Shown here: in pieces, positions 1-45,779 of the stretch
How positions within the stretch are numbered: position 1 is the stretch's first letter
Layout of the letters: every line of letters begins with the position of its first letter
Source of the DNA: Dehalococcoidia bacterium
Lineage (GTDB): Bacteria; Chloroflexota; Dehalococcoidia; Dehalococcoidales; Fen-1064
Reading direction: 5' to 3'
Assembly: GCA_003162335.1 (NCBI GenBank)
Contig: PMMG01000057.1
Coordinates: 991 to 47,237, forward strand
Length of the DNA stretch: 46,247 nucleotides
Program-made: the position numbers and the translations under genes
The notes under the pieces: model-generated
What the model saw: the letters and a program-made list of their open reading frames with translations, nothing else
The model's database searches: none
Told to the model about the DNA's origin: nothing

Positions 1-1554
1 GATAAACTGCCGGAACGGCTGATAGGACATGCCTAATGAACCCGATGAACGGAATGCCAGCGCGTCCTGCTTGTGACCGGTGCGAACGAAGTTAGTCCAG
101 GAGACGGGGTCCATCTGGCGGATTTCCATGTTAACGCCAACCGCGGCAAAGTAAGACTTTACGATCTGCAGCAAGTTCAGGTCGCCGGAACTGTCTGCCA
201 CACAGTCAGTATTAAAGCCGTTCGGATAACCGGCATCGGAGAGAAGTTTCTTGGCTGCCGCAGGATCATAGGAATACTGATTTTTCAGGTCTTGCGGCCA
301 TGTAGAATACGGGAAGCCCCAACCCTTTAACGTATAAGCGGTAAGGGTTTGAGGATCGGATGAACAAGTGCCGCCGTAATAGGTCGCGGCAATTGTTGTT
401 AGATCGACGGCTTTTTGTAATGCCTCTCTGACACGGATGTCAGTAAAAGGTTTCACATCTACCCTGGGGTCAACGGTGCCTCCCTGCGTGCCCGGCATGG
501 TAAGTTCGACGATTTGTGGATTGGTTTTTTGCATAGATTGGGAATCCTGCAGAGAAATTCCTTCCATTACATCGATCTTACCGGTGCGGATAGCGGCTAG
601 GGCCGTGGCCGAATCCGGAATAACCAGGACAATCAGTTTGTCGATGTAAGGAAGCTGGTTTTGCGGATAGCGCTCATCAAATCCCCAGTAATTCGGGTTC
701 TTGACAAGGGTCACCGAGCTGGAAGGAACGTAATCTTGCATCACAAACGGGCCGGTCCCGATGGCATGATGCCAGTCGTTAAGGTCGCCAAACTGCGCAA
801 CTGCGTCAGAGGCGGCAAATGGATCCTCACCGACGGCTTCCATGGATTCCAAAATAAATTCAACGTTGGGAGTGTTAAATTTAAAAACAACTGTGTATTT
901 ATCCGGGGCACTGACATCGGTAATGCTAGTTGTAAGTGGATTTGATGCTAAGAACGGGCTGGGTTTGGTAAAACCGGCTCCATGGCCGAAATCCCGGCCA
1001 AAATTGTAAACTACATCAGCGGAGGTGAACTCCCGTCCATTTACCGGCGCTATATTCTGCCAATGGACGCCCTGCCGCAAGTGAACAACATATGTACCGG
1101 GTGAAGTAAACTCCCAGCTCGCGGCTAACAGTCCGGTGACATAATCGGTAGGACGGAAACCGATACTGAAATCAAATACCGACGGATCCAGCGTCCAGTT
1201 ATCGCCGTAAAGCCCTTCCATGTAGGCGCCGGTGATGGTTGCCAACGACGAGCTGTTCATCGGATCCCACAAGCCAAAGTCCGCGGGACTGTAATCGGTC
1301 AGGACTCCGCCGTATTGCGGTTTACCGAATTTATCCCACCATTTACCGGTGGACGCAGTGGAGGTTGATGTTGCAACCTGGGTGGTGGACGTTGTAGTGT
1401 TTACCTTTTGGGTAGTGGTCGTGGTGGTGATAGACGTTGTTTGCGTAGTGGTTGATGCCTGTGTTGGTGTTGTTGATGATGTGGTACAGGAAGCCAGAAC
1501 AAGTGATGTGACAATTAGACAGGTTAAGACAATCCAGTAAGCTCCTCTTTTCAT
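1..1554 (-). CDS. ABC transporter substrate-binding lipoprotein, family 5 (peptide/nickel/opine type); 3' end runs off the window
   Basis: Absent from the supplied ORF track because it has no in-window stop. My own minus-strand translation from ATG 1554-1552 (RBS AAGGGGG upstream) stays open for all 518 codons to position 1. It reads MKRGAYWIVLTCLIVTSLVLASC (signal peptide plus lipobox), then a Thr/Ser-rich linker. Later segments are ...VHLRQGVHWQNIAPVNGREFTSADVVYNF...NPNYWGFDERYPQ...IRTGKIDV..., typical of SBP_bac_5 proteins. Confidence 0.85.
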   Translation of the reverse strand, partial: MKRGAYWIVLTCLIVTSLVLASCTTSSTTPTQASTTTQTTSITTTTTTQKVNTTTSTTQVATSTSTASTGKWWDKFGKPQYGGVLTDYSPADFGLWDPMNSSSLATITGAYMEGLYGDNWTLDPSVFDFSIGFRPTDYVTGLLAASWEFTSPGTYVVHLRQGVHWQNIAPVNGREFTSADVVYNFGRDFGHGAGFTKPSPFLASNPLTTSITDVSAPDKYTVVFKFNTPNVEFILESMEAVGEDPFAASDAVAQFGDLNDWHHAIGTGPFVMQDYVPSSSVTLVKNPNYWGFDERYPQNQLPYIDKLIVLVIPDSATALAAIRTGKIDVMEGISLQDSQSMQKTNPQIVELTMPGTQGGTVDPRVDVKPFTDIRVREALQKAVDLTTIAATYYGGTCSSDPQTLTAYTLKGWGFPYSTWPQDLKNQYSYDPAAAKKLLSDAGYPNGFNTDCVADSSGDLNLLQIVKSYFAAVGVNMEIRQMDPVSWTNFVRTGHKQDALAFRSSGSLGMSYQPFRQFI

Positions 1555-1939: not shown

Positions 1940-3355
1940 ATGAAAATAAAAATGGATTACAAATGGGTAGCATTATCAGTCACGACCGTCGGCATATTTA
2001 TGTCGAGTCTGGATATGAGTATTGTGGTGGTAGGTCTCCCCACGATATTACAGGATCTGCATGCGAGTATTGTGCATGGTATTTGGATTATCACCGGATA
2101 TACTTTGATGATGACGATACTGGCAGTAATACTCGGCCGCCTGGCTGATTTATACGGCAGAGTGAGACTTTATAATCTGGGATTTGTGCTGTTCACCATT
2201 GGTTCCTTGCTGTGCGCTTTGTCGCATACCGGCGAGCAACTGATAATCTTTCGTTTTTTGCAGGGTTCAGGCGCCGCTTTGCTGGCTGTAAACAGTGTTG
2301 CTATTATTACCGATGCTTTTCCTAAAAAAGAGCTCGGCAGGGGACTGGGAATAAATATCATGGCCGCGAACCTGGGAGCAATCGCGGGATATACGCTCAG
2401 CGGCGTGATGATAACATATTTCGGGTGGAGGTCTATCTTCCTGCTTAATGTTCCAGTCGGCATTTTTGGTTCCGTATGGGGTTATTTACGGTTAAAAGAA
2501 ATTGCCGCCAGACCCGTCGGCCAAAAATTCGATTATGCGGGTTCGATTTTATATTGCATTGCTTTAGCCACTATTTTATTCGGCCTGGCAATCGGAGATC
2601 CGGCTTCAACGCGCAACATCTTTATCATTGCAGGCGGGTTAATACTATTTGTCGCCGTAATAATTGTGGAACTGCGACAACCATATCCGACACTTGACTT
2701 GACACTGTTTAAGATAAGGCTGTTTGCTGCGGGAAATATATCCAGTTTCATCAACGCGGTTGCATTCAGTTGCGGCCCTTTTTTAAGATCACTTTACCTT
2801 CAACTGATACTCGGTTACAGTGCTTTAAAAACAGGTGTTTTACTGATACCGATGGAAATAATAATCTTCGCAATCAGTCCCATCAGCGGGCGATTAGCGG
2901 ATAGATACGGCAGCCGGGTATTGACTTCGGTGGGTTTAGCTTTTAATGCTGCCGCACTTTTCTGGTTTTCGACGCTGAACCAGAGTTCCACTTATGGGGC
3001 TGTATTAATCAGTTTATTCTTATTCGGATTAGGAACTGCCTTGTTTGCTTCGCCTAACGTCAGCTCGGTAATGGGTGCTGTTCCGCCGGAAAAGCGCGGC
3101 GTCGCCAACGGCATCAGGATGACACTCAACCAAACTGCAAACGTACTGAGTGTGCCATTTTCTTTACTGCTGATGACACTGGTAATGCCGTACGATAAAC
3201 TTTCCCAAATCGCGAGCAGCTCGCAACTCACTAACGCCAATGAAATTCCGATCTTCCTGAAAGCTATAAACCATGCCTGTTTTATCCTTGGGATAATCGT
3301 TTTAGTCGCGGTTATTCCATCATTTTTGCGGGGAAATAATAAAGTCCAGCAGTAA
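1940..3355 (+). CDS. MFS transporter, DHA2 (EmrB/QacA-like, about 14 TMS) family
   Basis: 471 aa and strongly hydrophobic throughout. The N-terminal LDMSIVVVGLPTI and GRLADLYGR motifs are typical of MFS drug:H+ antiporters. Start could be 1940 or 1952. Confidence 0.85.
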   Translation: MKIKMDYKWVALSVTTVGIFMSSLDMSIVVVGLPTILQDLHASIVHGIWIITGYTLMMTILAVILGRLADLYGRVRLYNLGFVLFTIGSLLCALSHTGEQLIIFRFLQGSGAALLAVNSVAIITDAFPKKELGRGLGINIMAANLGAIAGYTLSGVMITYFGWRSIFLLNVPVGIFGSVWGYLRLKEIAARPVGQKFDYAGSILYCIALATILFGLAIGDPASTRNIFIIAGGLILFVAVIIVELRQPYPTLDLTLFKIRLFAAGNISSFINAVAFSCGPFLRSLYLQLILGYSALKTGVLLIPMEIIIFAISPISGRLADRYGSRVLTSVGLAFNAAALFWFSTLNQSSTYGAVLISLFLFGLGTALFASPNVSSVMGAVPPEKRGVANGIRMTLNQTANVLSVPFSLLLMTLVMPYDKLSQIASSSQLTNANEIPIFLKAINHACFILGIIVLVAVIPSFLRGNNKVQQ

Positions 3356-3546
3356 CAAAATGACCGTTGAACAAAGCCGGCGGGTATTTTGTTGCGTTGG
3401 TGGCTGTTTGAAAATACTTGATATTGGTGATATACTCCAGGTAATATTCGATAACGAATATTACGGCAGTTGAAGCAAAAAGAGTATAATTTAATTGTAG
3501 AGCTAAATATTGTCGGCGAGCAAAAATACGGAGAAGGGGGACGGAT

Positions 3547-6018
3547 ATGACAATTGTGCTAGGTAACAAGAAAGTCCAGGATATTGGCAGTTGGCAAGAG
3601 TCTTTCGTTCCAACCTATTCTGAACGCGTTAAAAAAGCGATGAAAAGGGTAACGCATGCGCCGGAAATTTGTTTAGAGCACGCGCGGGCCGAAATCAAAG
3701 CGTATGAGCAGTATAAAGACGAACCCAGAATTATCCAGAGAGCGCGTTTTCTGGAGACTTATCTGCGGGAAAAGACCATCTATATCCTCGAGGATGAACT
3801 CATTGTCGGTAATGTTAACAGCAAAGTGCGGGGGCAAACCATTTCCGGCACCTCCGGCAGATATTTTGCCTACCAGCTCCAGGAGGCATATGATGACCCG
3901 GCGAATTCTGATAAGGTTCGCTTCAACGGCATCAGCATGGAAGGCATAGTCAGCCCCTCGGAGAAAAAAGAGCTGGAGGAAGTAATTCTCCCGCATTTTA
4001 AGGGAAAGTCTCTATTCGATTACAATTTCGCGCAATTGGACGACGTACTGAGGCAAAAGACATGCCAGGTAACGTCGCCCTGCCAGCATATCCCAAACGT
4101 GAACCGCATGTCGATGCTGAGAGACTCCGGCCACCAGATGGCGAACCACGAAAAGGTAATGAAAATCGGGCTTAAAGGTATCAAAGCAGAAACTGAATGG
4201 TACCTGGCTCAGCTCGACCAGCCGTATGCTCATTATCAGTTAAAAGAGAAGAAAGATTTTTATAAAGCAGTCCTGATTACGCTTGACGCCGTCATGGCTT
4301 ATTCTCAGCGTTACGCCGACCTTGCCCGGGAAATGGCAACCAAAGAAGATAACCCACGGCGTAAGAAGGAACTCGAGCGTATTGCCGATGTTTGTCAACA
4401 GGTGCCGGCAAATCCCGCCCGTGACTGGTGGGAAGCGGTGCAATCCACATGGATGATACATGTCATCGGCGATTGTGAACTTCCCGGTGGCACGAACAAC
4501 TACGGACGCTTTGACCAGTACATGTACCCCTATTATAAAAAATCTATTGTCGACGAAAAGACAATGACGCATGACGAAGCGCTGGAACTGCTGGAATTAT
4601 TCGAGATAAAAACAGTGTGCGCCCGAGGGGCAAGCGTATCTCTGAATATCGGCGGACAGACCCGCGACGGAAAAGATGCCTGTAACGATGTTTCCATGCT
4701 CTGTCTGGAAGCGGACGAGCAACTTAATGTACTGCAGCCGGAGACAGCTTTCCGGATTTGGGCAGGCACTCCTGATAAATACCTGAAAAAAGCAGCGGAA
4801 GTGGTTAAACTGGGCCGAGGGAAACCGAAATTTACCGGCGACCGGAAAGCAATCAAAATGATGGCGAAAGCTTTCCCCGATTTAACTCTGGAAGACTGGC
4901 GGGAATACGCGTTGATGGGATGTTCCGCAGCAACTATGCCGCACATCAGTATGGCGAATATGTCTGAAGGCGAAAGTAATGTCGCCAAACTGGTGGAATT
5001 AACGCTGAATAACGGTAAATGCGCGATTTGCGGAGAGCAAATCGGTCCATTGACCGGCGACCCCAGGACTTTTGAATCGATCGAAGCAGTTAAAAAGGCT
5101 TTCCGTGAACAGGTTTTCTATTGGATGAATTTTTCGGTCAAGGGCACAAAAGTATTCAAAGAGAGTCAAGCCGCCCTGTTACCCGCGCCGTTCAGTTCCT
5201 CCCTCGCCGAAGGTCCACTACAGAAGGGAATCGATATTATTCAGGGCGGTTCCTGGTATACCATCTACTCGATGTATCTGGTCGGTTTGGCTGATTCCGC
5301 GGACTCTCTTGCCGTGATTGATAAATTGATCTACCGCGACCAGAAGATAACCTGGGACCAATTGCTGGAGGCCGTCAAGGCGAACTGGCAGGGTTATGAG
5401 CAGTTGCGGCAATTATGCATCAACGGCGTGCCTAAATACGGCAACGACGATGATTTCGCCGATGAATGGGCAGTGTGGGTAATGAATACCTGGCAGGATA
5501 GTCTAGACTGGATCAACACCCAGAGGGAACTGCTCCCGTCATGGGGCGGAAAGTGGGTTGGTAAGACAGCCATCGGAAATATGAATGTCGACCACGGGAA
5601 GTTAGTCGGCGGACTACCAAACGGACGCCCTAACCCTAAGCCTGTGGCAGACGCCGTATCACCGGCTCAGGGCATGGACAGAAACGGTCCGACTGCGGTA
5701 ATTAAGTCAGTGAGTAAACTGCCGAAACACCGGCTCGCCGGAGGCGGTCCGATAAATCTGAGAATCAGTCCCCAGCTGGTAGCAACCGATCGCGATATTG
5801 ATAACTTCGTGTCCTTTCTCAGGACAATTGAAGAACTGGGAATATACCATGTCCAGTTTAATATTGTTTCCAGTGACCTTCTGCGCAAGGCCATGAAAGA
5901 CCCGGATAACTACCGCGACCTGATGGTGCGTGTGGGCAGTTTTGTCTCTTATTTTGTCAGCCTGCGGAAAGAAGAACAGATGGATATTATCAGCCGCACT
6001 GAGCACCAGGGTTTTTAG
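3547..6018 (+). CDS. Glycyl radical enzyme homologue (PFL2 / glycerol-dehydratase-like family) with a non-canonical Gly loop
   Basis: 823 aa with RBS AAGGGGGA. The N-terminus (PEICLEHARAEIKAYEQYKDEPRIIQRARFLETYL...IYILEDELIVGN) is typical of the PFL2 domain. A Cys loop MGCSAATMP is present (Cys codon 4921-4923). The C-terminus YRDLMVRVGSFVSYFVSLRKEEQMDIISRT matches the glycyl-radical fingerprint except at the Gly itself (see findings). Confidence 0.85.
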   Translation: MTIVLGNKKVQDIGSWQESFVPTYSERVKKAMKRVTHAPEICLEHARAEIKAYEQYKDEPRIIQRARFLETYLREKTIYILEDELIVGNVNSKVRGQTISGTSGRYFAYQLQEAYDDPANSDKVRFNGISMEGIVSPSEKKELEEVILPHFKGKSLFDYNFAQLDDVLRQKTCQVTSPCQHIPNVNRMSMLRDSGHQMANHEKVMKIGLKGIKAETEWYLAQLDQPYAHYQLKEKKDFYKAVLITLDAVMAYSQRYADLAREMATKEDNPRRKKELERIADVCQQVPANPARDWWEAVQSTWMIHVIGDCELPGGTNNYGRFDQYMYPYYKKSIVDEKTMTHDEALELLELFEIKTVCARGASVSLNIGGQTRDGKDACNDVSMLCLEADEQLNVLQPETAFRIWAGTPDKYLKKAAEVVKLGRGKPKFTGDRKAIKMMAKAFPDLTLEDWREYALMGCSAATMPHISMANMSEGESNVAKLVELTLNNGKCAICGEQIGPLTGDPRTFESIEAVKKAFREQVFYWMNFSVKGTKVFKESQAALLPAPFSSSLAEGPLQKGIDIIQGGSWYTIYSMYLVGLADSADSLAVIDKLIYRDQKITWDQLLEAVKANWQGYEQLRQLCINGVPKYGNDDDFADEWAVWVMNTWQDSLDWINTQRELLPSWGGKWVGKTAIGNMNVDHGKLVGGLPNGRPNPKPVADAVSPAQGMDRNGPTAVIKSVSKLPKHRLAGGGPINLRISPQLVATDRDIDNFVSFLRTIEELGIYHVQFNIVSSDLLRKAMKDPDNYRDLMVRVGSFVSYFVSLRKEEQMDIISRTEHQGF

Positions 6019-6101: not shown

Positions 6102-6404
6102 ATGGGGAAAGTAATTTTAAAAGTCCCTCCATTTTTTGCCTCAATACTGGATCCGAAATCTTCGGGCTGGTTCATTGTGGAAACAGAGATTGCGGGAAAA
6201 ATAACCATTCGTAATCTTCTGATAGAGATTGCGGCAAATAAACCTGAGTTTCGTCAAGCTATTTTTAATCCTGATGAAGGAATCCTGAACGGGCAAATCG
6301 ATATCATACTCAATCAAAAATTCCTTCCGTTTCCCCATGCATTGGATACCGACTTGATTGATGGAGATATTATTACTTTGCTTCCGGTTTTATCCGGCGG
6401 TTGA
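6102..6404 (+). CDS. MoaD/ThiS-family ubiquitin-like small protein with C-terminal Gly-Gly
   Basis: 100 aa ending ...DGDIITLLPVLSGG followed directly by TGA (GGC GGT TGA, 6396-6404). This is the hallmark of beta-grasp sulfur-carrier proteins. It lies 20 nt upstream of the AOR start. Confidence 0.75.
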   Translation: MGKVILKVPPFFASILDPKSSGWFIVETEIAGKITIRNLLIEIAANKPEFRQAIFNPDEGILNGQIDIILNQKFLPFPHALDTDLIDGDIITLLPVLSGG

Positions 6405-6424
6405 ACCGGAAAGGTTGGGGTATC

Positions 6425-8305
6425 ATGGATCAGATTTATGGGTACAGCGGAAAACTGTTAAGGATAGACCTCACCAATGAGAAGGTCATTAAAGAGAATC
6501 TGGATGCAGCGACGCTCAGGAAATGGGTGGGCGGCACCGGATTGGGCGCAAAATACCTCTTTGATGAAGTATCTAGAGGTGTAGATTGGAGCGATGCAGA
6601 GAACCGTTTAATTCTGGCTTCGGGACCTTTAGGCGGCACCGCGATTAACGGCTCAGGAACTGTCGGTATTGTGACCAAAGGAGCGCTGACAAATGGTGCG
6701 GCAGCCTGCCAGGCCAATGGGTTTTTCGGCGCTTTTCTCAGATTTAGCGGCATCGATTGCCTCATCCTGCAGGGTAAAGCTAAAAGGTGGGTTTATCTCT
6801 CTATCCACGGCGATGAAGTAGAATTTAAGGATGCCTCTGCTCTGTCCGGGAAGGATACCTGGGAAACCAACGATCTCATCCGAAAGGAACTCGGGGCAAC
6901 CGAACACGGAGTATCCGTCGCCAGTATCGGACCGGCCGGGGAAAACCTGGTACGGTTTGCCGGAATATTTTTCGATAAAGGCCACGTTGCTTCACACAAC
7001 GGCGTCGGGGCGGTGATGGGTTCGAAGCAACTTAAGGCTATCGTCATTGCGCGGGGTGAGAGACGCCCTGTCGTACAGGACAAGGAACGTCTTGCCGCTA
7101 TCGCCGAGCAACAATTCGAAATCTACAAGCCCGTCGTGGTATATTCATCCGGCACACTTAACGGCGTGATCAGCTCGGTCATGGCAAAGGACGGAACTGT
7201 GCCGGTGAAAAACTACTCCACTAATGTCTTTGATGTCACCCCCGAGCAGCTGGACAAATTCAGCGCTAATTACATCCGCAGCCATTTCGATCCTAAGCCC
7301 AGCCCCTGCTGGGCTTGCCGGACACATCATTTGCACATGATTACGATTAACGAGGGGCCATTCAAAGGCTGCGCCAGCGAGGAACCTGAGTACGAGTGTC
7401 TCGCTGCTTTTGGGCCGATTACCGGTATCACTGATGCCGCCGCGACGGTTGGTCTTTGTAATGAAGCTGACCGCCTCGGTCTGGACAGCAATGAAACCGG
7501 CTGGACGATCGGTCTGGCCATGGAGTGCTTCGAGAAAGGACTTTTGACCACCTCGGATACCGGCGGCCTCCAGCTCAATTGGGGAAATTACCTCGCAGTT
7601 AAAGAGTTGATGCATCAGATTACCGAGCGTAAAGGATTCGGAGCAATACTGGCAGAAGGCGCGATGAGGGCAGCGCAGAGCATCGGGAAAGGAGCCCCGG
7701 ATTTCGCGCTGCACACAATGAAAGGTAATACTCCCCGCGGTCATGACCACCGCAACAATTGGCCCAGGCTCCTTGATACTTGTATGTCGCAGATGAGCAG
7801 CGATGAAGGCTACGATGTGCTCAAACCGCAGGATATCGGACTTAGCTTAACCAAGCTCGCCAGACCGGATACCTCAATCGAGGACACGCTGAAATACAAC
7901 ATCGGCTGCAAGGGCGCTGCCCAGTTTGAGGATTCCCTTGGGGTTTGCCGTTTTACTACTATGACGAACATGAAATTGCTTTGCGAAGCTGTGAGCGCCG
8001 TCACCGGTTGGGACTTTACCCCAAATGAAGGCATGGAAGTTGGGAAGCGCACCGTTAATCTCCTGCGCTGCTTTAACATCCGGCACGGCCACACTGCTGA
8101 CATGGACGCCCCGTCACCCAGATATGGTTCTGCTCCGGTTGACGGACCTTCAAAGGGAATCAGCATAATGCCGCAATGGAACGAGATGAGAAGCAAGTAT
8201 TATGAGGGTATGGGCTGGGATAAAGAAAGCGGGAAACCGCTGCCGGATACATTGAAACGTTATGGTCTGGAATACGCTATTAATGAATTATGGGGGAGAG
8301 TGTAA
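6425..8305 (+). CDS. aor: Aldehyde:ferredoxin oxidoreductase family (tungstopterin enzyme)
   Basis: About 626 aa from ATG 6425 (MDQIYGYSGKLLRIDL, typical AOR N-terminus). The track's TTG at 6401 overlaps the MoaD-like stop. AOR motifs seen: EEPEYE, CWAC, DSLGVC, and LWGRV at the C-terminus. Confidence 0.9.
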   Translation: MDQIYGYSGKLLRIDLTNEKVIKENLDAATLRKWVGGTGLGAKYLFDEVSRGVDWSDAENRLILASGPLGGTAINGSGTVGIVTKGALTNGAAACQANGFFGAFLRFSGIDCLILQGKAKRWVYLSIHGDEVEFKDASALSGKDTWETNDLIRKELGATEHGVSVASIGPAGENLVRFAGIFFDKGHVASHNGVGAVMGSKQLKAIVIARGERRPVVQDKERLAAIAEQQFEIYKPVVVYSSGTLNGVISSVMAKDGTVPVKNYSTNVFDVTPEQLDKFSANYIRSHFDPKPSPCWACRTHHLHMITINEGPFKGCASEEPEYECLAAFGPITGITDAAATVGLCNEADRLGLDSNETGWTIGLAMECFEKGLLTTSDTGGLQLNWGNYLAVKELMHQITERKGFGAILAEGAMRAAQSIGKGAPDFALHTMKGNTPRGHDHRNNWPRLLDTCMSQMSSDEGYDVLKPQDIGLSLTKLARPDTSIEDTLKYNIGCKGAAQFEDSLGVCRFTTMTNMKLLCEAVSAVTGWDFTPNEGMEVGKRTVNLLRCFNIRHGHTADMDAPSPRYGSAPVDGPSKGISIMPQWNEMRSKYYEGMGWDKESGKPLPDTLKRYGLEYAINELWGRV

Positions 8306-8586: not shown

Positions 8587-10188
8587 CTATTTTACTTGAC
8601 ACACTAGAGCCGTTACAGAATGGGGCTCGAATAAATAGATAAAGGATTTTCCCGAAACATTAATAACAGTCTCCCGTTCCCCCACCTCATTGGGCTTTTC
8701 ATCGGTATTTTCAGCTTTAACATCCGGTCCATTTATTACGCATACCTGCACGATTCCTGTAAATTGTCCACTAGTTAAAGAAATATTTGTTTCCATCGCT
8801 TTTTCTTTGCTCTGGTTTACAACATACATCACCAGCTGCTTACGGTTCTTATCCAGAGTAGCGGCGACATCCAGCGTACGCATACCTTTATAAGCGCGAT
8901 TTTTATAGGTTCCAGAGAAGGTATCGCCATACCAGAATACATCCAGGGCAAGTTGTCCGCATGTACGGCTGTAGAGTTCAAACGGGAAGAAAATCGTTTT
9001 TAAAAGCACCGGCTTATCCGGCCGGTCGTAGTTAATCATTCCCCTGGTGGGCATCGGTGTAAAATTAGCCATCCGTACCGAATGCGCATGTCGAATAAAA
9101 GTATTCAGACATTGAGCTGTAGCCAGGGCATCTTCTAAGCTGACTTTTAATTTTATGTTGTAAGGAACATCTTTTTTACCTTCAGGAAGATGCATTACTC
9201 CCCATTCATCTGCGGCCAGTTTAATCGGGTCATCTTTACTATTATCTTCAGGGATGCGTGTACCATCCCATTCATCTACGGCGATGTTGATAGAATGCTT
9301 AATGCCTCTTTCCAGACTTACAGCGCGAATCAAACCCTCATAAGCATTCAGACGTTCGTTGAAGCTTTCTGCAAAGGCCATATATGTTTCGAATGGTTCA
9401 TTTTCTGATGGATGAGCATAGCGGTGTATTGCCAAATAATCAACAATGTCTCCGGCTTGCTCTAAAATCAATTGTGTTCGCTCAACCCACCGACTGTGCT
9501 GATCTGGGAACTGAGAAAGAGGATGATCTTCCCAAAGAGAAACTGCAGATGCAACAAGATTGATGTTCGGATCTACCCGTTTCATAACCTTGCTGAATTC
9601 CGTAACAGCTCGCGCATATTCCTGGGGAGTTTTGTAGCCTAATTGCCATGGACCATCAACTTCATTGCCAATGCCCCAGTATTTAACTTTATGTGGATCT
9701 TTAAAACCATGTTTGCGCCTCAGATTTACGAGTTCAGTATCACCGGTACCGTTACAGTATTCAACCCAATCAGCAGCCTCTCTCATATTACCATCGCCGC
9801 AATTAACACATAGATACGGCTCAATGTTCATTGAGCGGCAAAACCGAATGAATTCATTTGTACCATAATGATTTGGCACAATGCGTGGCGGATTATGAGC
9901 CAGATCATGTCTTATAGGGCGCTCATGCCTCGGCCCAACGCCATCCTCCCAACGATATCCGGAAGCAAAATTCCCACCCGGAAAGCGTATTGTTGCCAGG
10001 TTCATCCGCTCAAGTGCGTTTCTTACTTTGAAGGGCAATCTGCTTTTATCGGCATCGGCATTATCTCCGATATCTAAATAACTAAACTCGGTATCTCGAT
10101 GTGAACATGCAATCTCCATATAACCACCAAAAATATTTCGATCGATATCACTTACAATGCGTTCAAGATCAATTTTTATATGGTTCAT
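8587..10188 (-). CDS. abfA: GH51 alpha-L-arabinofuranosidase
   Basis: 533 aa. Contains IFGGYME, RFPGGNF, the acid/base motif WGIGNEVDGPWQ, and DEW nucleophile motifs. Confidence 0.85.
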   Translation of the reverse strand: MNHIKIDLERIVSDIDRNIFGGYMEIACSHRDTEFSYLDIGDNADADKSRLPFKVRNALERMNLATIRFPGGNFASGYRWEDGVGPRHERPIRHDLAHNPPRIVPNHYGTNEFIRFCRSMNIEPYLCVNCGDGNMREAADWVEYCNGTGDTELVNLRRKHGFKDPHKVKYWGIGNEVDGPWQLGYKTPQEYARAVTEFSKVMKRVDPNINLVASAVSLWEDHPLSQFPDQHSRWVERTQLILEQAGDIVDYLAIHRYAHPSENEPFETYMAFAESFNERLNAYEGLIRAVSLERGIKHSINIAVDEWDGTRIPEDNSKDDPIKLAADEWGVMHLPEGKKDVPYNIKLKVSLEDALATAQCLNTFIRHAHSVRMANFTPMPTRGMINYDRPDKPVLLKTIFFPFELYSRTCGQLALDVFWYGDTFSGTYKNRAYKGMRTLDVAATLDKNRKQLVMYVVNQSKEKAMETNISLTSGQFTGIVQVCVINGPDVKAENTDEKPNEVGERETVINVSGKSFIYLFEPHSVTALVCQVK

Positions 10189-10727
10189 AGATATACTCCT
10201 TCGTCAGACTTAATCTCTTAGAGTAACAACTCTGTGACAGTGATAAAGATTTCGATTTGGAGGAATAGATATAATGGTTGATAACTGAGCGAATTTTGAA
10301 GAATATTTTGCTAACGACCTGATTATATTCCTTTATCAGTTTTTCAATCAATGTCCAAAATTACAAAAACAAACTTCCCAAAACCTTACGGTCGCGGAAT
10401 TAAGTAAGCAAGAATAAAATTATTCCAAAAGAAAGTCTTTAACATATTCAGCCAGGTTATTTATGTATTCAGGCAATGTGAAACATCCGGGAACAACCGG
10501 TGTTACTGCGCTTCACTATAGCGGTGAAAGCACGTATTGATAAGTCGATTGAAGAAGGAATATAATCACTGCTATCGCCTGGTTCTAAAAATTACCGGAC
10601 TACCGGCACTTGAAGCCATGTTCCCGTGTACGTATATAACAACAAATCGAACTGGAAGGGTAAGTCAGAAAAAGTTGATAATTCTAAATTGCTTTGAAAT
10701 AAGATGAATATACGAATAGGAGATCTT

Positions 10728-11702
10728 ATGCAGTACAGAAAACTGGGGAAATGGGGATTAAAAATAAGTGAAATTGCTTTGGGAAGCTGGATGACAGATT
10801 TAATAAGCACAGAAGCTGTCGATACTGCAAAAAGAACATTGCGCCTGGCATACGGAAATGGCGTTAACTTTTTTGACTGCGCGGATGCGTATAGTGACGG
10901 CGCTGCTGAAATATTTTTAGGGAATGCCTTAAAAGAATTCACGAGAAGTTCTTATGTAGTATCAAGCAAGGTATTTTTCTCCGTAGGAAAAGGGCCGAAT
11001 GACAGAGGGCTGTCAAGAAAGCACATTTTTGAGCAGATTAACAAATCCCTGAAGAATCTGCAAACCGATTATCTTGATCTGTATTTCTGTCACCGATATG
11101 ATCCGGACACACCGATTGAGGAAATGTTACAGGCAATGAGTGATTTAGTGGTTCAAGGAAAAGTATTATATTACGGCGTTAGTGAGTGGAGTCCGGTGCA
11201 GATCACGGAAGGGCTTGGCCTAACCAGGACTATGGGACTCAGACCAATTTCTGTCATTCAACCTCAGTACAATATGTTTGACCGGTATATTGAAGATGAG
11301 ATTATGGGTATTTGTGAAAGCAATGGCATTGGAATTGTTCCTTTTTCACCGTTATCACAAGGACTTTTAACAGGCAAGTACAGAAAATGGATGCCGATTC
11401 CTGAGGGCTCACGGGCAACTCATCAGGCCGATATGCAGATTAACAAACTTCTTACCGATGACAATTTGGAAAAGGTTGAGAAGCTTATAAAAATAGCAGA
11501 TGAGTCAGGTGTCTCTCTCCCGGTTCTTGCTTTGGCGTGGACGCTGAGAAAACCGGTGATCAGCAGTTTAATCACAGGCGCTTCAACTCCCTCTCAACTG
11601 GAGTTAAATTTAAAGGCAAGCGGATTGACGTTATCTGCTCGTGTACTCGACGAAATAGAAAAGATTTTGGACTACAAACCATTCTTTAGAAAAATAGGAT
11701 AA
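10728..11702 (+). CDS. Aldo/keto reductase (Tas / K+-channel beta-subunit-like)
   Basis: Contains MQYRKLGKWGLKISEIALGSW..., FFDCADAYS and LDLYFCHRYD. AGGAGA RBS lies before ATG 10728. The track start at 10704 looks like an upstream extension. Confidence 0.85.
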   Translation: MQYRKLGKWGLKISEIALGSWMTDLISTEAVDTAKRTLRLAYGNGVNFFDCADAYSDGAAEIFLGNALKEFTRSSYVVSSKVFFSVGKGPNDRGLSRKHIFEQINKSLKNLQTDYLDLYFCHRYDPDTPIEEMLQAMSDLVVQGKVLYYGVSEWSPVQITEGLGLTRTMGLRPISVIQPQYNMFDRYIEDEIMGICESNGIGIVPFSPLSQGLLTGKYRKWMPIPEGSRATHQADMQINKLLTDDNLEKVEKLIKIADESGVSLPVLALAWTLRKPVISSLITGASTPSQLELNLKASGLTLSARVLDEIEKILDYKPFFRKIG

Positions 11703-12035: not shown

Positions 12036-12563
12036 CTAACCGTCCAGAGAATGATGTTCCACTCTCGTAAACCAATCTACAGGATCCGTAAGATATTCAA
12101 TGTAATCCACAAGAATCAATTCATGTTGCCTTTCCTCGGCAGCGACAGCCTCATAAAAAATTCGTTCAGTATCATAAGTTGCATTCTGACTCTGTCTCTT
12201 ATAAAAATCATAGCTAGTTTTTTCCTTTTGGATAGCGGTGTTAATAGCATCAAATTCCATACCTGCTGCTTTTACATTTACTCCGGTCGCCGCACAAGCT
12301 TCGTTAAATATTTCATGCAGTTTTTGGCTGTTATCTGACAGCGAGTCGATTAAAGGCCATCCTTTATTATGCTGGATATCATTAAATATCTCTTCGAATT
12401 TCTTACGGTGTAAATCCTCGTCGCCAGCCAGTGACCCAAATATCTTCCTGCCAACATCGTTACCGCTATCCTGCCCAGCCTGGAGGTAACATTCTTTCCC
12501 CTCTTTTTCGATATCGATGGCAATTTTGAGCGCTTCCAAAATTTTATTCTGTTCAGTTTCCAC
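12036..12563 (-). CDS. Ferritin-like / rubrerythrin-family diiron protein (no rubredoxin domain)
   Basis: 175 aa with a GTG start. Shows a four-helix-bundle pattern with ExxH pairs (EDLH, EERQH) and preceding Glu residues (IEKEGKE, FYEAVAAEE). Confidence 0.7.
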   Translation of the reverse strand: METEQNKILEALKIAIDIEKEGKECYLQAGQDSGNDVGRKIFGSLAGDEDLHRKKFEEIFNDIQHNKGWPLIDSLSDNSQKLHEIFNEACAATGVNVKAAGMEFDAINTAIQKEKTSYDFYKRQSQNATYDTERIFYEAVAAEERQHELILVDYIEYLTDPVDWFTRVEHHSLDG

Positions 12564-12643
12564 GTCTGTTTCTTCCTTTTATTTTCCTACTCACCCCGGA
12601 AGCCCAACAGCTTTCCCATAATGTTGATATTGGTTTCAAGCCG

Positions 12644-14173
12644 TTAGCCGGGGCTTATCTTTCTTTCTTCAGTCATTTTTTTATCGACTTGTCTTAAATT
12701 TTTCAAATGTTTCCGGTAATATGGATCATTTTTCATGGATCCAATTGTTTTCCTGGCATAAACGTGGGCGAAGATGTCAGTAGCGAATAATCTGAATGCT
12801 CTAACCGGATCAGAAAAAAGCTGCCTGGAATCATAAAATAACGTACGCGATAGATGGCGGTTACTGAAAAGATCGAAATGTAGATCCAGATCTGTTTCTT
12901 GTAAACCCGAGCATGTAAACCCGCGAGGGGGTGCCGTCACAAGATGTTGCGCATCAAACAAGTTGCTCTCATTTTGGGCAAACTCAAAAATCGATTTTTC
13001 ATCACCCACGGGTGTGCCGGGAAAAGGCGTTAGTATCAACAGTTGACCGCTGCTCGATTTATTATCTTTTCTTAAGAAGTTTTTAAAGTTTTCTATAGTT
13101 TTGGGAGTATCGCCGTCAATTCCCACAACAAACATATCATGTACAAAGAACCCGAGCTTTCTTAATATCTCGGTTGACTTGATACTTTCTTCGGCGGTAA
13201 ATGGTTTACTGATATTTTTCAAAGATTCTGAATTAATCGACTCTTTTCCCTGAAAAACGGCAAATAGCCCGGCTTTTTTCCATAATTTCACAAGTTCGAT
13301 GTCTTCCGCGAAGCTGGCATCTATTTGGGCTAAATACCGCCTGATTAACTTTGATTCTATCAGTTTTTCCGCAACTTGCCGGGAAGCGGCTCGTTTAGGT
13401 CTTGGAGCTAAATTGTCGCCCGTAAAGAATATAGCCTCTCCGTCTTTACTGTCTCTAACTTCGGCGACGATCCTTTCCGGGGTTTTCATTCTGTATGTGT
13501 GTTTATAGGCAACGGTGACACAGCAAAATTTACAATTTCCATAACAGCCTCTTGATTCATTAACCGTATGCAAGTTCCTTTTTTTCTTGATGTATTCCGG
13601 ATAAAAGGGGAACGGCGCTTCAGAGAGTTCCTGTTCTGTTAATAACGGGCTATTTTCATTATGTTTTACCTCTCCGTTTATCTGGTAGCTGATTCCTTTG
13701 ATATATTCCAATGGTTCACCATTTATTATGGCTTTTACTGCCAACGGAGCCGTTTTTTCGCCCTCTCCCCGTACAACAACATCGACTCCGCTTAAAAGCC
13801 ATTTTTCCGGTTCAAAACTCGGACCGAAACCTCCTGCGATTACTTTTCCTACCGGATTAGTTTGTTTATATTGACGAACAGCATCGAGGGAAGAATCGGT
13901 ATTTCGAGTCGTACCGCTGAGCGCCAAAATATCGCTTTGAAAAATTCTTCTTATATCAGATTGTGTAAACTTTCCATATTCCGGGTAGAATCGGCTGTCT
14001 TCCGTAAACACTTTCGTAAAGCCGGCAGCTTTTAAAACACCGTCAATCGCTCCTACGCTATTGGAAGGAGCGCCGCTTTTTGTATATACATCGTTAGTGA
14101 TTTTACCGTTAAAGATACCCCCTTCGGTCGGAGGAATAATGGCAACGGAGATAACTGGTTGCAGGTACTCCAT
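12644..14173 (-). CDS. B12-binding-domain radical SAM protein (class B)
   Basis: Radical SAM motif CYGNCKFC (CxxxCxxC). The N-terminal Rossmann-like domain carries VVVRGEGE. ATG 14173 has RBS AAAGGTGAG. The track start at 14218 is a likely over-extension. Confidence 0.8.
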   Translation of the reverse strand: MEYLQPVISVAIIPPTEGGIFNGKITNDVYTKSGAPSNSVGAIDGVLKAAGFTKVFTEDSRFYPEYGKFTQSDIRRIFQSDILALSGTTRNTDSSLDAVRQYKQTNPVGKVIAGGFGPSFEPEKWLLSGVDVVVRGEGEKTAPLAVKAIINGEPLEYIKGISYQINGEVKHNENSPLLTEQELSEAPFPFYPEYIKKKRNLHTVNESRGCYGNCKFCCVTVAYKHTYRMKTPERIVAEVRDSKDGEAIFFTGDNLAPRPKRAASRQVAEKLIESKLIRRYLAQIDASFAEDIELVKLWKKAGLFAVFQGKESINSESLKNISKPFTAEESIKSTEILRKLGFFVHDMFVVGIDGDTPKTIENFKNFLRKDNKSSSGQLLILTPFPGTPVGDEKSIFEFAQNESNLFDAQHLVTAPPRGFTCSGLQETDLDLHFDLFSNRHLSRTLFYDSRQLFSDPVRAFRLFATDIFAHVYARKTIGSMKNDPYYRKHLKNLRQVDKKMTEERKISPG

Positions 14174-14513
14174 TTTTCTCACCTTTAATCTTCGTAAATA
14201 AAATAAATCATAATACATTCATAATCATGAGAGAATCAGTATAAAGAAGTCATAACATTTGCTCGTAAAATATAACAATTAAGTGTAGTCTTTTTTACTT
14301 TTTACGCAAATTAAGAAAGCCGGACCAATCCCGCAATTAGAACAAATAATATATTGCACTTATTCACTCTGGAATCTTATCTTGCTACCATATTGTCACC
14401 AATTTGTCATGTTTTTATCCAATTCGTTATACCTTTGTTACTAACCGTGAAGTAGAATACAACCAACATGAGTACATAAGATACTGAGGGAAAATAAATA
14501 GTAGAGGTGTAAT

Positions 14514-41044: not shown

Positions 41045-42088
41045 CTATATCAAATGAACTGATGAGGGTAAAAAGCTGATATAAACAGGGCTGCCGGTAT
41101 TGATTACCATATGCTCGAATTGCTGCCGCGGCAGCAAACATTCGAACTGCGGGGAGCAATCAACGGTAACCAGGATATTGGCGCCTTTATCTACGATTGT
41201 CTTAACGCTGCCCGGAAATGAATTGGAAATTAATATTGGTTTTTCCGCGGTCAGCTGCAGCATTTCAGGACGGATCACCGCGAATCCGGCTTTCGTGTTA
41301 TCCGATGAAGCAAATATCTCGATGGCGTCACACCTAAACACACTGCTTTTAGTGTCCCGTCCAATAACTTTCCCGCTAAAAATATTCCGTGCCATGGTGA
41401 AACGGGCTACGAATTCAGAGGACGGATGATAGAAAATCTCCGCGGGCGGGCCGACCTGCGCGATCTTCCCCTGATTGATCACCACAATGGTATCCGCCAG
41501 CGACATGGCCTCTTCAAAATCGTGGGTAACATGCAGTGTAGTAATATTGAGCTTATCGTGAATCGTTTTTAATTGAGAACGCATCTCTTCGCGGCTTTCC
41601 GCGTCAAGTGCGCTTAAAGGCTCGTCCAGTAATAATATATGCGGTCTGGTGATCAAAGCACGGGCTAGGGCGACTTTCTGGCGTTCCCCTCCGGATAGCG
41701 ACGCGGGTAACCTGTTTAACAAGGGTTGGATTTCGAACAAACCGGAGATCCAGTGCAGCGCTTCGTCAATTTGCGGCTTCGCTGTGTGTCTGACGCGTAA
41801 ACCAAATATAATATTTTCTTTGACCGTAAGATGAGGGAACAGGGAATAGTCCTGATATACGATACTGACTCCGCGCGCTTCCGGCGCAGTACCGGTGACA
41901 TCTTTACCGTCGAGGATAATCTCGCCATGACTAAGGGCATGCAGACCGGCAATCGATTCCAGTAAAACAGTTTTTCCCGCACCGGTTGGACCGAGTATAA
42001 CAGTATACTCGCCTTTGGAAACCACCAGATCGACCTGTTCCAAAAGGAAATCAGCTACTTTGACATGCAGGTTTTTTAACTCAATCAT
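41045..42088 (-). CDS. ABC transporter ATP-binding protein with C-terminal TOBE domain (molybdate/tungstate type)
   Basis: Walker A GPTGAGKT, signature LSGGERQ, Walker B LLLDEP, and a C-terminal beta-rich TOBE-like segment of about 110 aa. ATG 42088 overlaps the permease stop by 8 nt. Confidence 0.85.
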   Translation of the reverse strand: MIELKNLHVKVADFLLEQVDLVVSKGEYTVILGPTGAGKTVLLESIAGLHALSHGEIILDGKDVTGTAPEARGVSIVYQDYSLFPHLTVKENIIFGLRVRHTAKPQIDEALHWISGLFEIQPLLNRLPASLSGGERQKVALARALITRPHILLLDEPLSALDAESREEMRSQLKTIHDKLNITTLHVTHDFEEAMSLADTIVVINQGKIAQVGPPAEIFYHPSSEFVARFTMARNIFSGKVIGRDTKSSVFRCDAIEIFASSDNTKAGFAVIRPEMLQLTAEKPILISNSFPGSVKTIVDKGANILVTVDCSPQFECLLPRQQFEHMVINTGSPVYISFLPSSVHLI

Positions 42089-42905
42089 GTTTTCTATCCC
42101 GCTGTAAGACAAACCGGAAACCGATAAAAATGAACGCACAGATGATCACCAGAATAGCTGCGACTGGAACCGACTGCGTCAGCCCGTAAGTCGCAAATCG
42201 TTCGTAGATTAATGTGGACGTGACCATAGGATAATAGGTCAGAATAACCACTGCCCCGAATTCGCTGATACCGCGCGCCCACATCATCAGCGTACCTGCC
42301 AGGATACTGCGCCAGGCGAGCGGAAACGTAACGCGGTAAAATACCTGCCACGGTGAAGCTCCCAGTGTACGCGCCACGTTCTCCAGCCGCACATCGATCT
42401 TACGGAAACCGTCTTTGGCAGAGTTGATCAGAAACGGCACGCTGACAAATAGCATGGCGATTACGATACCCGCTAACGAATCGACAAAAGAAATACCAAT
42501 CGCATTAAACCATTTCCCCAATAAAAAATTCCGTCCGAAGACAAAAAGCAGCGCAATACCGGCAGCAGTATGCGGCACAACAATGGGCAAATCAATGAGA
42601 CCTTCAACGACACCCTTTAAGGGGAAATTATTGCGCGCCAGCAGGTAAGCCAGCGGCACTCCCAGCAGAAACCCGATCGCAGCGGTGATCAGAGCGGCAT
42701 ACAGGGTGAGTAAAATTGATTGCATAACGGAGGGATCAAGCAGGGCTTGCCACAATTCGCTTTTATCTGAAAACAAGATCAGCTTGGCCAGTGGAATAAA
42801 TATAAACAACACGATCAACAGGCTGAGGATACTGAAAACAGCCAGCAAACGGTGGCGGCCTAACCAACTGCATACGGAGTGTATGATTTTTGAGATAACT
42901 GCCAA
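42081..42905 (-). CDS. ABC transporter permease (ModB/WtpB-like)
   Basis: 274 aa with 5-6 TMS. The EAA-type loop reads ENVARTLGASPWQVFYRVTFPLA. TTG start with AGGAGA RBS. Confidence 0.85.
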   Translation of the reverse strand: MAVISKIIHSVCSWLGRHRLLAVFSILSLLIVLFIFIPLAKLILFSDKSELWQALLDPSVMQSILLTLYAALITAAIGFLLGVPLAYLLARNNFPLKGVVEGLIDLPIVVPHTAAGIALLFVFGRNFLLGKWFNAIGISFVDSLAGIVIAMLFVSVPFLINSAKDGFRKIDVRLENVARTLGASPWQVFYRVTFPLAWRSILAGTLMMWARGISEFGAVVILTYYPMVTSTLIYERFATYGLTQSVPVAAILVIICAFIFIGFRFVLQRDRKHD

Positions 42906-42914
42906 CCTTTTCTC

Positions 42915-43991
42915 CTAACGAAACAATGGTTTGAGAGAAGCAGGAAGTGCATTAATGTTATCACATCGAGGAGGTACCAATTCAGGCTGATTAGCATTCT
43001 GAAAAATACTTTGACCTTCGGCGCTCAGAACAAATTGAATGAATTTTTCCGCGGCGCCCGGATTTTTAGAATTATTGGCAATGGTCATGCCGTAGATAAT
43101 TGGTAATCCCTGGAATACAGGATTTACCGTTTTAAAACGCTGATAATCCGCTTTGACAACCACTTTGCCATAGTTTTGCGCTAAATTAGCATCAGACAGG
43201 TTGATTTCCGGTGGCAATTCCAGATATTGCAATCCATCCTGAATGACGGTACTTTTATAATCGATAGTATAATCAATATCCCCCGATTGAAGTAACGCAA
43301 GCAGTTCCATATGAGCGCCGCGCAGCACCATATGGGGGTCGGTTGGTTCTAATAATTCCGGGATATGGATAGTTGATGTGCCGTTAATATCGTTAGAAGT
43401 GATGGGCATGGAAAAATACTTGCCGATTGTATTATCCATGATATTACCGGTATGGTAATAAGATTCGGCGAGTTTCAATGCCATCAGGTTCCGATAACCA
43501 ACAGCATCCATGCGGGGGTCGGCGAATCCGAAGCGGACATCCGGGCGAGCGATTATCTGATACCAGTTACCGGCATTAAGTTCAGAGGCATATTTACTTT
43601 TGGAAGTGTACGCCAGTACCAGCTGATTAGTTGCCGGCATAATATCCCAACTGGCATAGGGTTTGCCGTCCGGCATTTTGGTCTGATACATCAACATCGG
43701 TATCAGCGAATAATCAGCCACCGCAACCACGTCCACATCCTGGCCGAGTTCCGTGACCTGCCGGATTACCTGAATACTACCGTGAGCCTGCATCTCCACT
43801 TGAATATCGGGGTTAGCCTGTTCAAATTCCTTTTTAACCTGGGAAAAAGGGACCATTAAACTGTCGGCTTCAAACACGACCAGCTTTGTTTTTCCGGTAC
43901 CGGTAACTCCGGAGGAAGGTGAAGAGTTGGTGCATGCCGCCATTCCGGTCAATAAACTCGCGAGCAGGCAAATCAGCACCAGTCTCTTCAC
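42915..43991 (-). CDS. Tungstate/molybdate-type periplasmic binding lipoprotein (long, WtpA-like)
   Basis: 358 aa with a GTG start and lipobox LLTGMAAC. The size and the VFEADSL...HGS... layout resemble WtpA rather than the short ModA or TupA. It forms an operon with the permease and TOBE ATPase. Confidence 0.65.
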   Translation of the reverse strand: MKRLVLICLLASLLTGMAACTNSSPSSGVTGTGKTKLVVFEADSLMVPFSQVKKEFEQANPDIQVEMQAHGSIQVIRQVTELGQDVDVVAVADYSLIPMLMYQTKMPDGKPYASWDIMPATNQLVLAYTSKSKYASELNAGNWYQIIARPDVRFGFADPRMDAVGYRNLMALKLAESYYHTGNIMDNTIGKYFSMPITSNDINGTSTIHIPELLEPTDPHMVLRGAHMELLALLQSGDIDYTIDYKSTVIQDGLQYLELPPEINLSDANLAQNYGKVVVKADYQRFKTVNPVFQGLPIIYGMTIANNSKNPGAAEKFIQFVLSAEGQSIFQNANQPELVPPRCDNINALPASLKPLFR

Positions 43992-44035
43992 GTTTTTTCT
44001 TCTTCTCTCGTAACTGTTTTTATCGAGTATGTTAA

Positions 44036-44641
44036 TTAAGGTGCGGCAACGACATCGATCTTACTTAATAACTTTGCCCATATACTACCGTCAGAAACCA
44101 GGCTCTCACTGGAAAGGAGACCTACTTCGAGGGGACCGGTAGAACTGTCCAGGGCAGCGCCATTGGCAAAATAGACTATAGCTAATGTAGGCTTCGCGGT
44201 GGGCGTGGCAGGATTTCCGGACGCATCGTACATAGTAAAACCGCCGCTGGTGATCTGGTCGTAAGAAACTGTGGAAGTGTAGCCATCTGTGCCCGTGAAT
44301 TTGACGATCTGACCACTGGCAACGCCGCCGACAGCATTCAATAAGTCGATCAGAGCAACGCCTTTATAGGGAATAGGGCCGGTAACAACACCCTTCTTGT
44401 TCTTGGTACCGCCGTTGCCGGTAACTGATTTCATTGCCTGTAAATCAGCCATTGAATAGGACTTTGTCTTGCTGCCGCTGGTAACCGTCAGGACAACCGG
44501 TCCGGCCGGAGTTTGGGCTACCGTCGTGGTAGTAGTGGTGGTAGTGGTGGTTGTATCGGTGGTGGTTGAACTGCAGGATGACATGATGATCATCGCTGCC
44601 AGCAACACGCCAAGACCTAACCATGTTACAAGTTTTTTCAA
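44036..44641 (-). CDS. Lipoprotein with poly-Thr linker and one Cys-less sulfite-oxidase/YedY-fold-like domain (function unknown)
   Basis: TTG start with GGAGG RBS. Lipobox MSSC, then a run of 11 Thr. The domain signature is GPIPYKGVALIDLL...TDGY...LAIVYFANGAALDSSTGPLEVG...SIWAKLLSKIDV. Confidence 0.6.
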   Translation of the reverse strand: MKKLVTWLGLGVLLAAMIIMSSCSSTTTDTTTTTTTTTTTVAQTPAGPVVLTVTSGSKTKSYSMADLQAMKSVTGNGGTKNKKGVVTGPIPYKGVALIDLLNAVGGVASGQIVKFTGTDGYTSTVSYDQITSGGFTMYDASGNPATPTAKPTLAIVYFANGAALDSSTGPLEVGLLSSESLVSDGSIWAKLLSKIDVVAAP

Positions 44642-44685
44642 TTTATTCCTCCATTTTATTATTTACATTTATTTTTATTTGTTGC

Positions 44686-45711: not shown

Positions 45712-45746
45712 ATGCTTACACTCCCTTCTATGTATAAAAACACGAT

Positions 45747-45774
45747 AAAAAAAGCGCCCCCGAAAGGAGGCGCC
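45747..45774 (-). terminator. Intrinsic terminator (expression platform) in the operon leader
   Basis: Minus-strand RNA is GCGCCUCC-UUUC-GGGGGCGC followed by U7. It lies 36 nt upstream of ATG 45711. Confidence 0.75.
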
Positions 45775-45779
45775 AAACA

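Follow-up and report, generated by a model that had tools for sequence, protein, structure and literature searches.

A seryl radical enzyme by clade membership, encoded without a neighbouring activase in a Dehalococcoidia bacterium

Can a homologue of the glycyl radical enzymes (GREs) that carries a serine in place of the radical glycine still be a radical enzyme? The question is raised by a gene at positions 3547-6018 in 46,247 nucleotides of DNA from a Dehalococcoidia bacterium (assembly GCA_003162335.1, contig PMMG01000057.1, positions 991 to 47,237), a stretch which is called the window below. A sequence-only reading had recognised the 823-residue product as a PFL2-type GRE homologue and had pointed out the serine, a retained thiyl-radical cysteine, a missing general-base glutamate and the lack of a flanking activase gene; all of these observations were borne out. 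It had offered three explanations, i.e. a scaffold repurposed for non-radical chemistry, a radical shifted onto the neighbouring glycine, or a decaying gene. These fared less well, and all three are less well supported than a radical on the serine itself. By clade membership the protein is a seryl radical enzyme (SRE).

GRE homologues with alanine, serine or threonine at the radical position were described by Fu et al. (JACS 146:29645, 2024; PMC11528403). These aminoacyl radical enzymes comprise AREs, SREs and TREs; the activation partner of each is a radical S-adenosylmethionine (SAM) enzyme, and after activation each forms a Cα radical on the residue in question as detected by electron paramagnetic resonance (EPR) (PMC11528403). 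The model SRE, DaSRE from Dethiosulfatibacter aminovorans, showed a 1:1:1:1 four-line EPR signal upon activation, which was assigned to a Cα seryl radical, and among its S801 variants only S801G was still activatable (PMC11528403). A review of 2026 treats the aminoacyl radical enzymes as the seventh GRE class, with no known function (PMC13450708).

The window protein lies inside this group. The SRE table of Fu et al. lists 21 enzymes (PMC11528403). Two of them, HEY95974.1 and MBN2077277.1, belong to cluster P0015 (65% identity to the window protein), and MCL5959289.1, also in that table, is P0113 (P-labels denote homologues as 90%-identity clusters, L-labels genomic loci and WIN the window locus). 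A scan of one genome per species yielded 78 loci, in which all relatives of at least 42% identity had RVAS at the radical site and all of 37% or less had RV[AS]G; across this boundary the phmmer score fell from above 700 bits to 510 bits or less. In a neighbour-joining tree the serine clade was monophyletic with the window protein inside it, as the sister of L001-L003; L003 comes from a metagenome-assembled genome (MAG) named in the paper of Fu et al. The 50%-identity representatives of a set of 1.8 billion proteins included only two full-length SREs before a drop from 873 to 516 bits, and the radical position of the best 150 of these representatives was glycine in 124, threonine in 10, alanine in 5, serine in 2 and unassigned in 9. 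Thus, as judged by its place in the clade, the window protein is an SRE, and because it belongs there its serine is a family trait and not a defect. The replacement of the radical glycine by serine as such is already known; it is the defining trait of the SREs published in 2024.

With the published SREs the window protein shares the PFL-like and radical domains, RVxS[FY] with the serine on the glycine column, the thiyl cysteine, an AGY serine codon, its position in one monophyletic clade and a host range of Chloroflexota/Dehalococcoidales. HEY95974 and MBN2077277 share with it a Glu-less GCSA loop as well. On the other hand, the residue before the serine is glycine in the window protein and alanine in the published SREs, which according to the paper have an activase next door, whereas the window locus is without a cognate activase. 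Furthermore, the window operon with genes for a MoaD-like protein and an aldehyde:ferredoxin oxidoreductase (AOR) is unreported there, and DaSRE keeps the CXE motif's glutamate (loop GCTES, from the supplementary DNA) in contrast to GCSAA in the window protein. RVAAY paralogues with alanine on the radical column were seen at L016 (8053-10581), L026 (3634-6129) and L030 (10330-12819) and as P0250; they are 54-55% identical to the window protein, stand in tandem with an RVASY gene and are nested in the SRE clade. Since the alanyl radical enzymes of Fu et al. form a separate clade (PMC11528403), these paralogues may represent a second, independent origin of the alanine type.

The position of the serine was examined by phmmer alignment with solved GREs. 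Without any gap 'vrvgsf' was placed under 'iRVaGy', i.e. Ser798 is on the column of the radical glycine and Gly797 at the variable position, and the RVxG[FWY] motif of canonical GREs is not present. The sequence-only reading had the same residues, yet it located their codons at 5932-5937, one codon off the actual 5935-5940. No GGT was found at the radical codon. The same GGC AGT was present in three independent assemblies from different samples (>99.9% nucleotide identity), and 62 SRE genes used AGC (36) or AGT (26) and never TCN. Such an AGY-only pattern was reported for SREs by Fu et al. (PMC11528403); the AGT of the window gene is one transition away from a GGY glycine codon.

Conservation of the radical site was strict. 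Ser798 was invariant in 52/52 aligned clade members, and of the 120 best homologues (55-83% identity) the 119 with the C-terminus present all had R[VA][AG]S. R795, V794, S798, F803 and R817 were invariant in the clade alignment, with Q811, D813, I814 and I815 at least 90% conserved. The ratio of nonsynonymous to synonymous substitution rates (dN/dS) was 0.04 against L054 (89% amino acid identity) over the C-terminal 247 residues, i.e. the radical domain, and 0.05 against L001; orthologues were full length. By these ratios the SRE gene is under purifying selection and its function is maintained. Residue 557 (codon 5215-5217) was proline in the SREs (LAEGPLQKG) versus an invariant cysteine (EGC motif) in all 33 neighbouring Gly-type enzymes, and another 26 positions divided the serine clade from the glycine clade as cleanly.

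The protein has the GRE fold with a PFL-like domain and a C-terminal radical domain, and it ends in RDLMVRVGSFVSYFVSLRKEEQMDIISRTEHQGF followed by the stop codon; a GGAG-rich ribosome-binding site directly precedes the ATG. The PFL2 model TIGR01774 scored 542 bits, which is under its cut-off of 678 bits. CutC was the best sequence match in the PDB (E 1e-124). An AF2 model (pLDDT 86, pTM 0.89) had glycerol dehydratase 1r8w as its top Foldseek match (TM 0.89/0.93) and superposed on glycerol dehydratase, propanediol dehydratase, HypD and CutC at TM 0.88-0.93; X-succinate synthases fitted less closely (TM 0.79-0.84). In the model Gly797-Ser798 and Cys459 sit at the tips of two β-hairpins (E793-796/E799-802 with Ser798 and E455-457/E461-463 with Cys459), which correspond to the finger loops of GREs.

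If the window protein is an SRE, which enzyme activates it? No GRE-activase-type radical SAM gene was detected in the window, which covers 3.5 kb upstream and 40 kb downstream of the SRE gene, by Pfam analysis of all sizeable open reading frames (ORFs) or with an activase hidden Markov model in six frames. Near-identical contigs widened the upstream view to 6.7 kb, still with no activase. The only radical SAM gene of the window, as the sequence-only reading had it, codes for a B12-binding protein (12644-14218, -). This gene was considered as a substitute activase and rejected: it had no homologue near other SREs and only weak methyltransferase-type matches. Together with a rubrerythrin-like gene it occupies 12036-14218 (-); its weak matches are of HpnJ/BchE type and the pair is not linked to the SRE.

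Elsewhere in the clade activases are frequent neighbours. Among the first 55 SRE loci 34 had a radical SAM gene of the GRE-activating type near the SRE gene, directly downstream in most cases; the proteins have about 310 residues, a CPLRCxWC motif and a ferredoxin insert. Sister SREs with a Glu-less loop also keep an activase downstream, at a distance of 22-79 bp in L002, L003 and L084 (P0008) and of 6 bp in P0013. At loci of the window protein's own subgroup (at least 72% identity, RVGSF at the radical site) no adjacent activase was seen: L080 (P0009), L054, L085 (P0003), L086/L087 (P0004) and the P0002 contig (the P0002 and P0013 contigs were read from gene tables). Another RVGSF-type enzyme, P0006 at L081, sits downstream of a canonical RVAGF enzyme with that enzyme's own activase, which is 40-45% identical to SRE activases and GRE activases alike. 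The canonical enzyme has a Glu-less GCLGV Cys loop and lies with its activase at 25-3588 of L081, directly upstream of P0006; the gene call for the activase covers only 194 residues, and frame 2 holds the full 305. At L001 (7460-9880) the intact SRE P0005 is preceded in tandem by a second GRE-like gene that is split in four; this is a pseudogene or else the product of frameshifts in the assembly.

Genomes with several SREs carried activases at some of the loci only. The closest genome is the Dehalococcoidales MAG bin_136, which makes an origin of the window in the same order probable; it had an activase at L007 and none at L008, L021 and L054; MFD01231.bin.2.26 had one at L045 and none at L015, and MEGAHIT-group-0.852 one at L030 and none at L016. 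Because of this distribution trans activation by the activase of a paralogue is the simplest reading, and most likely the window SRE would be served by an activase from a paralogous SRE-activase locus of the same genome. In E. coli, PflA serves PflB, TdcE and GrcA, one activase for several radical-domain proteins. Similarly, a single TRE activase is found beside two TREs (Fu et al., PMC11528403). The PflA and TRE systems provide a precedent for enzymes without an activase gene of their own and may be likened to genomes with more SREs than activases; for the window SRE, in contrast, trans activation is deduced from sister genomes.

Cys459 of the Cys loop aligned with the catalytic cysteine of CutC and was invariant in the SRE, the nested Ala and the Gly groups. 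GCSAA was placed under GCVEP of CutC, with Ala461 on the glutamate column, and the CXE motif of eliminases and isomerases is thus missing. In every characterised eliminase and isomerase this glutamate forms a hydrogen bond to the hydroxyl group of the substrate (PMC13450708). Serine was conserved in the orthologues throughout. The Glu-less loop characterises the subclade P0001-P0013/P0015/P0016, to which the published HEY95974 belongs, and has Ala, Ser or Gly at the CXE position there; the other aligned SREs kept the glutamate in 37/37 cases. A second, independent loss has occurred in P0099/P0111 (loop GCTVCC, i.e. Val followed by two extra cysteines). The Glu-less aligned set was also changed at Tyr201, Trp353, Arg342, Arg144 and Tyr670. 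Because the CXE glutamate is lost, the classical Glu-assisted 1,2-elimination is probably not the reaction.

The closest solved structures by both sequence and fold are the GRE 1,2-eliminases (1R8W, propanediol dehydratase, HypD and CutC), which have the same two finger loops; they are 29-31% identical to the window protein and have the radical glycine and the CXE glutamate where it has serine and alanine. His196 is on the column of CutC Asp216 within a conserved G-H/G-D motif. GRE eliminases yield aldehydes, which is compatible with the adjacent AOR of the window locus. An SRE-specific metal site was considered and dropped: C179, C379, C495 and C624 are conserved (C492 is common to many GREs) and do not make up a clear four-Cys signature.

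Downstream of the SRE gene follow the genes for a ThiS/MoaD-like protein and for an AOR with AFOR_N and AFOR_C domains, assigned to the tungsten type from sequence (Table 1). There was no terminator-like site between the SRE and the MoaD-like gene. The order SRE-ThiS-AOR was also found at L080 (72% identity) and in the near-identical contigs L088-L090. At L054 (822-3027, -) the MoaD-AOR pair is inverted with respect to the SRE yet adjacent, and at L086/L087 an inverted AOR is adjacent, of which the short contigs show the end only. Overall an AOR was located within a few kb of the SRE at WIN, L054, L080, L086/L087, L003, L007, L008, L013, L016, L023, L047 and the P0013 contig. In the RVGSF subgroup it is next to the SRE in most loci, along with the MoaD-like gene where the sequence reaches. 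Because the MoaD-like gene and the tungsten AOR stay adjacent, an aldehyde or a carboxylate on the SRE pathway is suggested. A literature search on Dehalococcoidia, glycyl radical and AOR found no papers.

Other recurrent neighbours in the clade code for family III CoA-transferases, MaoC/FAS1-type hydratases, enoyl-CoA hydratases, DUF6282, DHDPS-like and UGSC proteins, and family-5 binding proteins. Downstream of the Glu-less, activase-less SRE P0011, L082 (12643-20245) codes for a thiolase, a zinc-finger/OB protein of the DUF35 type, two acyl-CoA dehydrogenases, a hydratase that is MaoC-like, a CoA-transferase of family III and a short-chain dehydrogenase/reductase. The set resembles the β-oxidation (bbs) genes for benzylsuccinate and hints that some SREs may make a carboxylic acid which is degraded as its CoA ester.

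Taken together we favor the following view. A GRE-activase-type radical SAM enzyme encoded elsewhere would remove the Cα hydrogen of Ser798, and the resulting stable Cα seryl radical would be stored at the hairpin tip, the 'Gly loop'. In turnover it would be handed on to the opposite Cys loop, where the thiyl radical formed on Cys459 would take a hydrogen atom from the substrate. Without the CXE glutamate the chemistry after hydrogen abstraction would differ from classical 1,2-elimination, with the AOR as a hint at an aldehyde or carboxylate. As a whole, an SRE with its radical on Ser798 and its activase in trans is in our estimation the likely explanation. What was observed directly for the window SRE is its membership of the clade, its conservation, the purifying selection on it and the context of its gene; the radical on Ser798, trans activation and the aldehyde link are what we infer from them.

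Several points weigh against this view. There is no activase at the window locus, and none of the RVGSF loci has an adjacent activase of its own, which is at odds with what Fu et al. state, namely that aminoacyl radical enzymes are all encoded close to an activase (PMC11528403). An activase acting in trans is an assumption, the sequence at hand for this organism being the window. DaSRE, on which the seryl radical was seen, appears to be distant from the window SRE, at roughly 45% identity as estimated via the RVASYN-type locus L044. With the CXE glutamate and the nearby Asp464 lost and Tyr201/Trp353 changed, catalysis must, to judge from these residues, differ from that of every characterised relative. 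Finally, the AOR link is one of adjacency, and in L054 and L086/L087 the AOR is convergent and not co-transcribed.

Has the RVGSF subgroup given up radical chemistry? Its scaffold could then serve in a non-radical catalytic, binding or structural role, e.g. in partnership with the AOR or a paralogous SRE. The sequence-only reading had considered such repurposing, and the existence of an activase-less subgroup (WIN/L088-90, L054, L080, L085, L086/87, P0002 contig) fits it, as do the loss of the CXE glutamate and Asp464, several altered pocket-type positions and the low TIGR01774 score. However, strict conservation extends over Cys459, Ser798 and the entire fingerprint for activase recognition, and dN/dS is 0.04 in the very domain where relaxation would be expected. 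Moreover, sister SREs with the same Glu-less loop still adjoin an activase, and multi-SRE genomes routinely have fewer activases than SREs. We therefore regard a loss of radical chemistry as unlikely. Slightly less probable still is a broader proposal, in which the RVGSF subgroup (at least 72% identity) would be a distinct kind of SRE, one that has parted with both a dedicated activase and Glu-assisted elimination; its radical would be stored differently (on Gly797, or on Ser798 by means of a shared or generic activase) or not exist at all, and it would act with the tungsten AOR in an undescribed anaerobic pathway of Dehalococcoidales.

A shift of the radical by one residue would give a glycyl radical on Gly797, which could be installed by a generic GRE activase from another locus. 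Gly797 is conserved throughout the subgroup, whose members are 72-100% identical to the window protein; glycine at -1 appears together with the loss of the locus's own activase, and a canonical RVAGF enzyme and its activase stand just upstream of P0006 (L081). Yet in the gap-free alignment Gly797 is out of register with the R-V-x-G-aromatic motif, and Ser798 has not varied in the subgroup although its members diverge by up to 28%. Glycine at -1, mostly alanine in SREs, is a recent change of a small subgroup; it also turns up sporadically in other SREs (RAGSY in P0038/P0070, RVGSY in P0109), and the activase at L081 is no nearer to GRE than to SRE activases. The shift is thus improbable, more so than the two preceding proposals. 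That the serine is a sequencing or assembly error or that the gene is decaying, for which the single transition between GGT and AGT and the TIGR01774 score under the cut-off might be adduced, is for practical purposes excluded because the assemblies agree, serine is found in each of more than 120 clusters of homologues and in 62 genes from genomic loci, dN/dS is 0.04-0.05 and the orthologues are full length.

Table 1. Coordinates of the SRE gene, its key residues and its neighbours in the window
Feature	Position	Strand	Remarks
SRE gene, 823 aa	3547..6018	+	PF02901 + PF01228; nested in published SRE clade
PFL-like domain PF02901	residues 26-659 = 3622-5523	+	Pfam, E 3e-153
Radical domain (Gly_radical, PF01228)	residues 700-804 = 5644-5958	+	Pfam, E 2e-24
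Cys459 codon TGT; thiyl-radical cysteine of Cys loop	4921..4923	+	aligned to catalytic Cys of CutC
Ala461 codon GCA, in place of CXE Glu; loop GCSAATM	4927..4929	+	phmmer alignment
Fingerprint R-V-G-S-F-x6-L-x4-Q-x2-I-x2-R, R795 to R817 plus T818; expected activase recognition motif	5929..6000	+	
Gly797 codon GGC; 'x' position of RVxS	5935..5937	+	Gly restricted to RVGSF subgroup; mostly Ala in SREs
Ser798 codon AGT; residue on radical-Gly column, putative Cα radical site	5938..5940	+	phmmer alignment
ThiS/MoaD-like protein, 100 aa	6102..6404	+	PF02597, TIGR01687; 83 nt past SRE stop; 4-nt overlap with AOR start
Tungsten-type AOR, 634 aa; probable operon partner	6401..8305	+	PF02730 2e-64, PF01314 5e-84
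Promoter-like site, 10/12 matches with TG	3408..3436	+	consensus match only; downstream of terminator-like hairpin
Terminator-like hairpin after MFS gene	3364-3383		
DHA2-family MFS (major facilitator superfamily) transporter, directly upstream of SRE	1940..3355	+	position kept in near-identical contigs
Family-5 ABC (ATP-binding cassette) substrate-binding protein, clipped by window edge	1..1554	-	homologues near same-branch SREs, 9 loci

The promoter-like site ahead of the SRE gene could perhaps be the start of an SRE-MoaD-AOR transcription unit, as far as a consensus match can suggest it. No riboswitch was found ahead of the SRE gene. The sole riboswitch of the window is of the Moco/Tuco (molybdenum/tungsten cofactor) type (RF01055, 84.7 bits, 45786-45923, -) and stands ahead of an operon at 41045-45837 (-). 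Besides an Oxidored_molyb-like protein and a 201-aa ORF, this operon comprises genes for a periplasmic binding protein, a permease and a TOBE-domain ABC ATPase; it probably serves to take up molybdate or tungstate, in keeping with the tungsten AOR at 6401-8305. After the AOR gene, 8587-11702 holds a GH51-like α-L-arabinofuranosidase homologue (-) and an aldo-keto reductase (+), whose position is kept in L088-L090. The segment 20027-26584 codes for a sulfur-incorporation enzyme of homocysteine biosynthesis (PF01837), a NIL-ferredoxin protein, a ferredoxin-domain protein resembling sulfite/nitrite reductases, a thioredoxin, Fur, a phosphofructokinase and a ThiF-family protein.

What does the locus mean for the family? 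The first description of aminoacyl radical enzymes dates from 2024, and none of them has a known function. The SRE family is larger than published, with at least 120 clusters (90% identity) at 55% identity or more to the window protein, mostly from Dehalococcoidales and other Chloroflexota, compared with the 21 enzymes listed. The rule of activase adjacency has exceptions in the form of the whole RVGSF subgroup, and at least two losses of the CXE glutamate within the SREs point to more than one type of reaction in the clade. For annotation it follows that SRE genes should be labelled neither pyruvate formate-lyases nor broken GREs. The RVGSF subgroup has no activase in cis, a Glu-less Cys loop, glycine at -1 and a conserved partnership with an AOR; some of these traits may be new, and together they are a lead toward SRE function. 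The recurrent AOR and MoaD-like genes, family III CoA-transferases and β-oxidation-like modules suggest routes via an aldehyde or a carboxylic acid. If the RVGSF enzymes were indeed a distinct subgroup of the kind outlined above, they would be the first point of access to the function of an aminoacyl radical enzyme.

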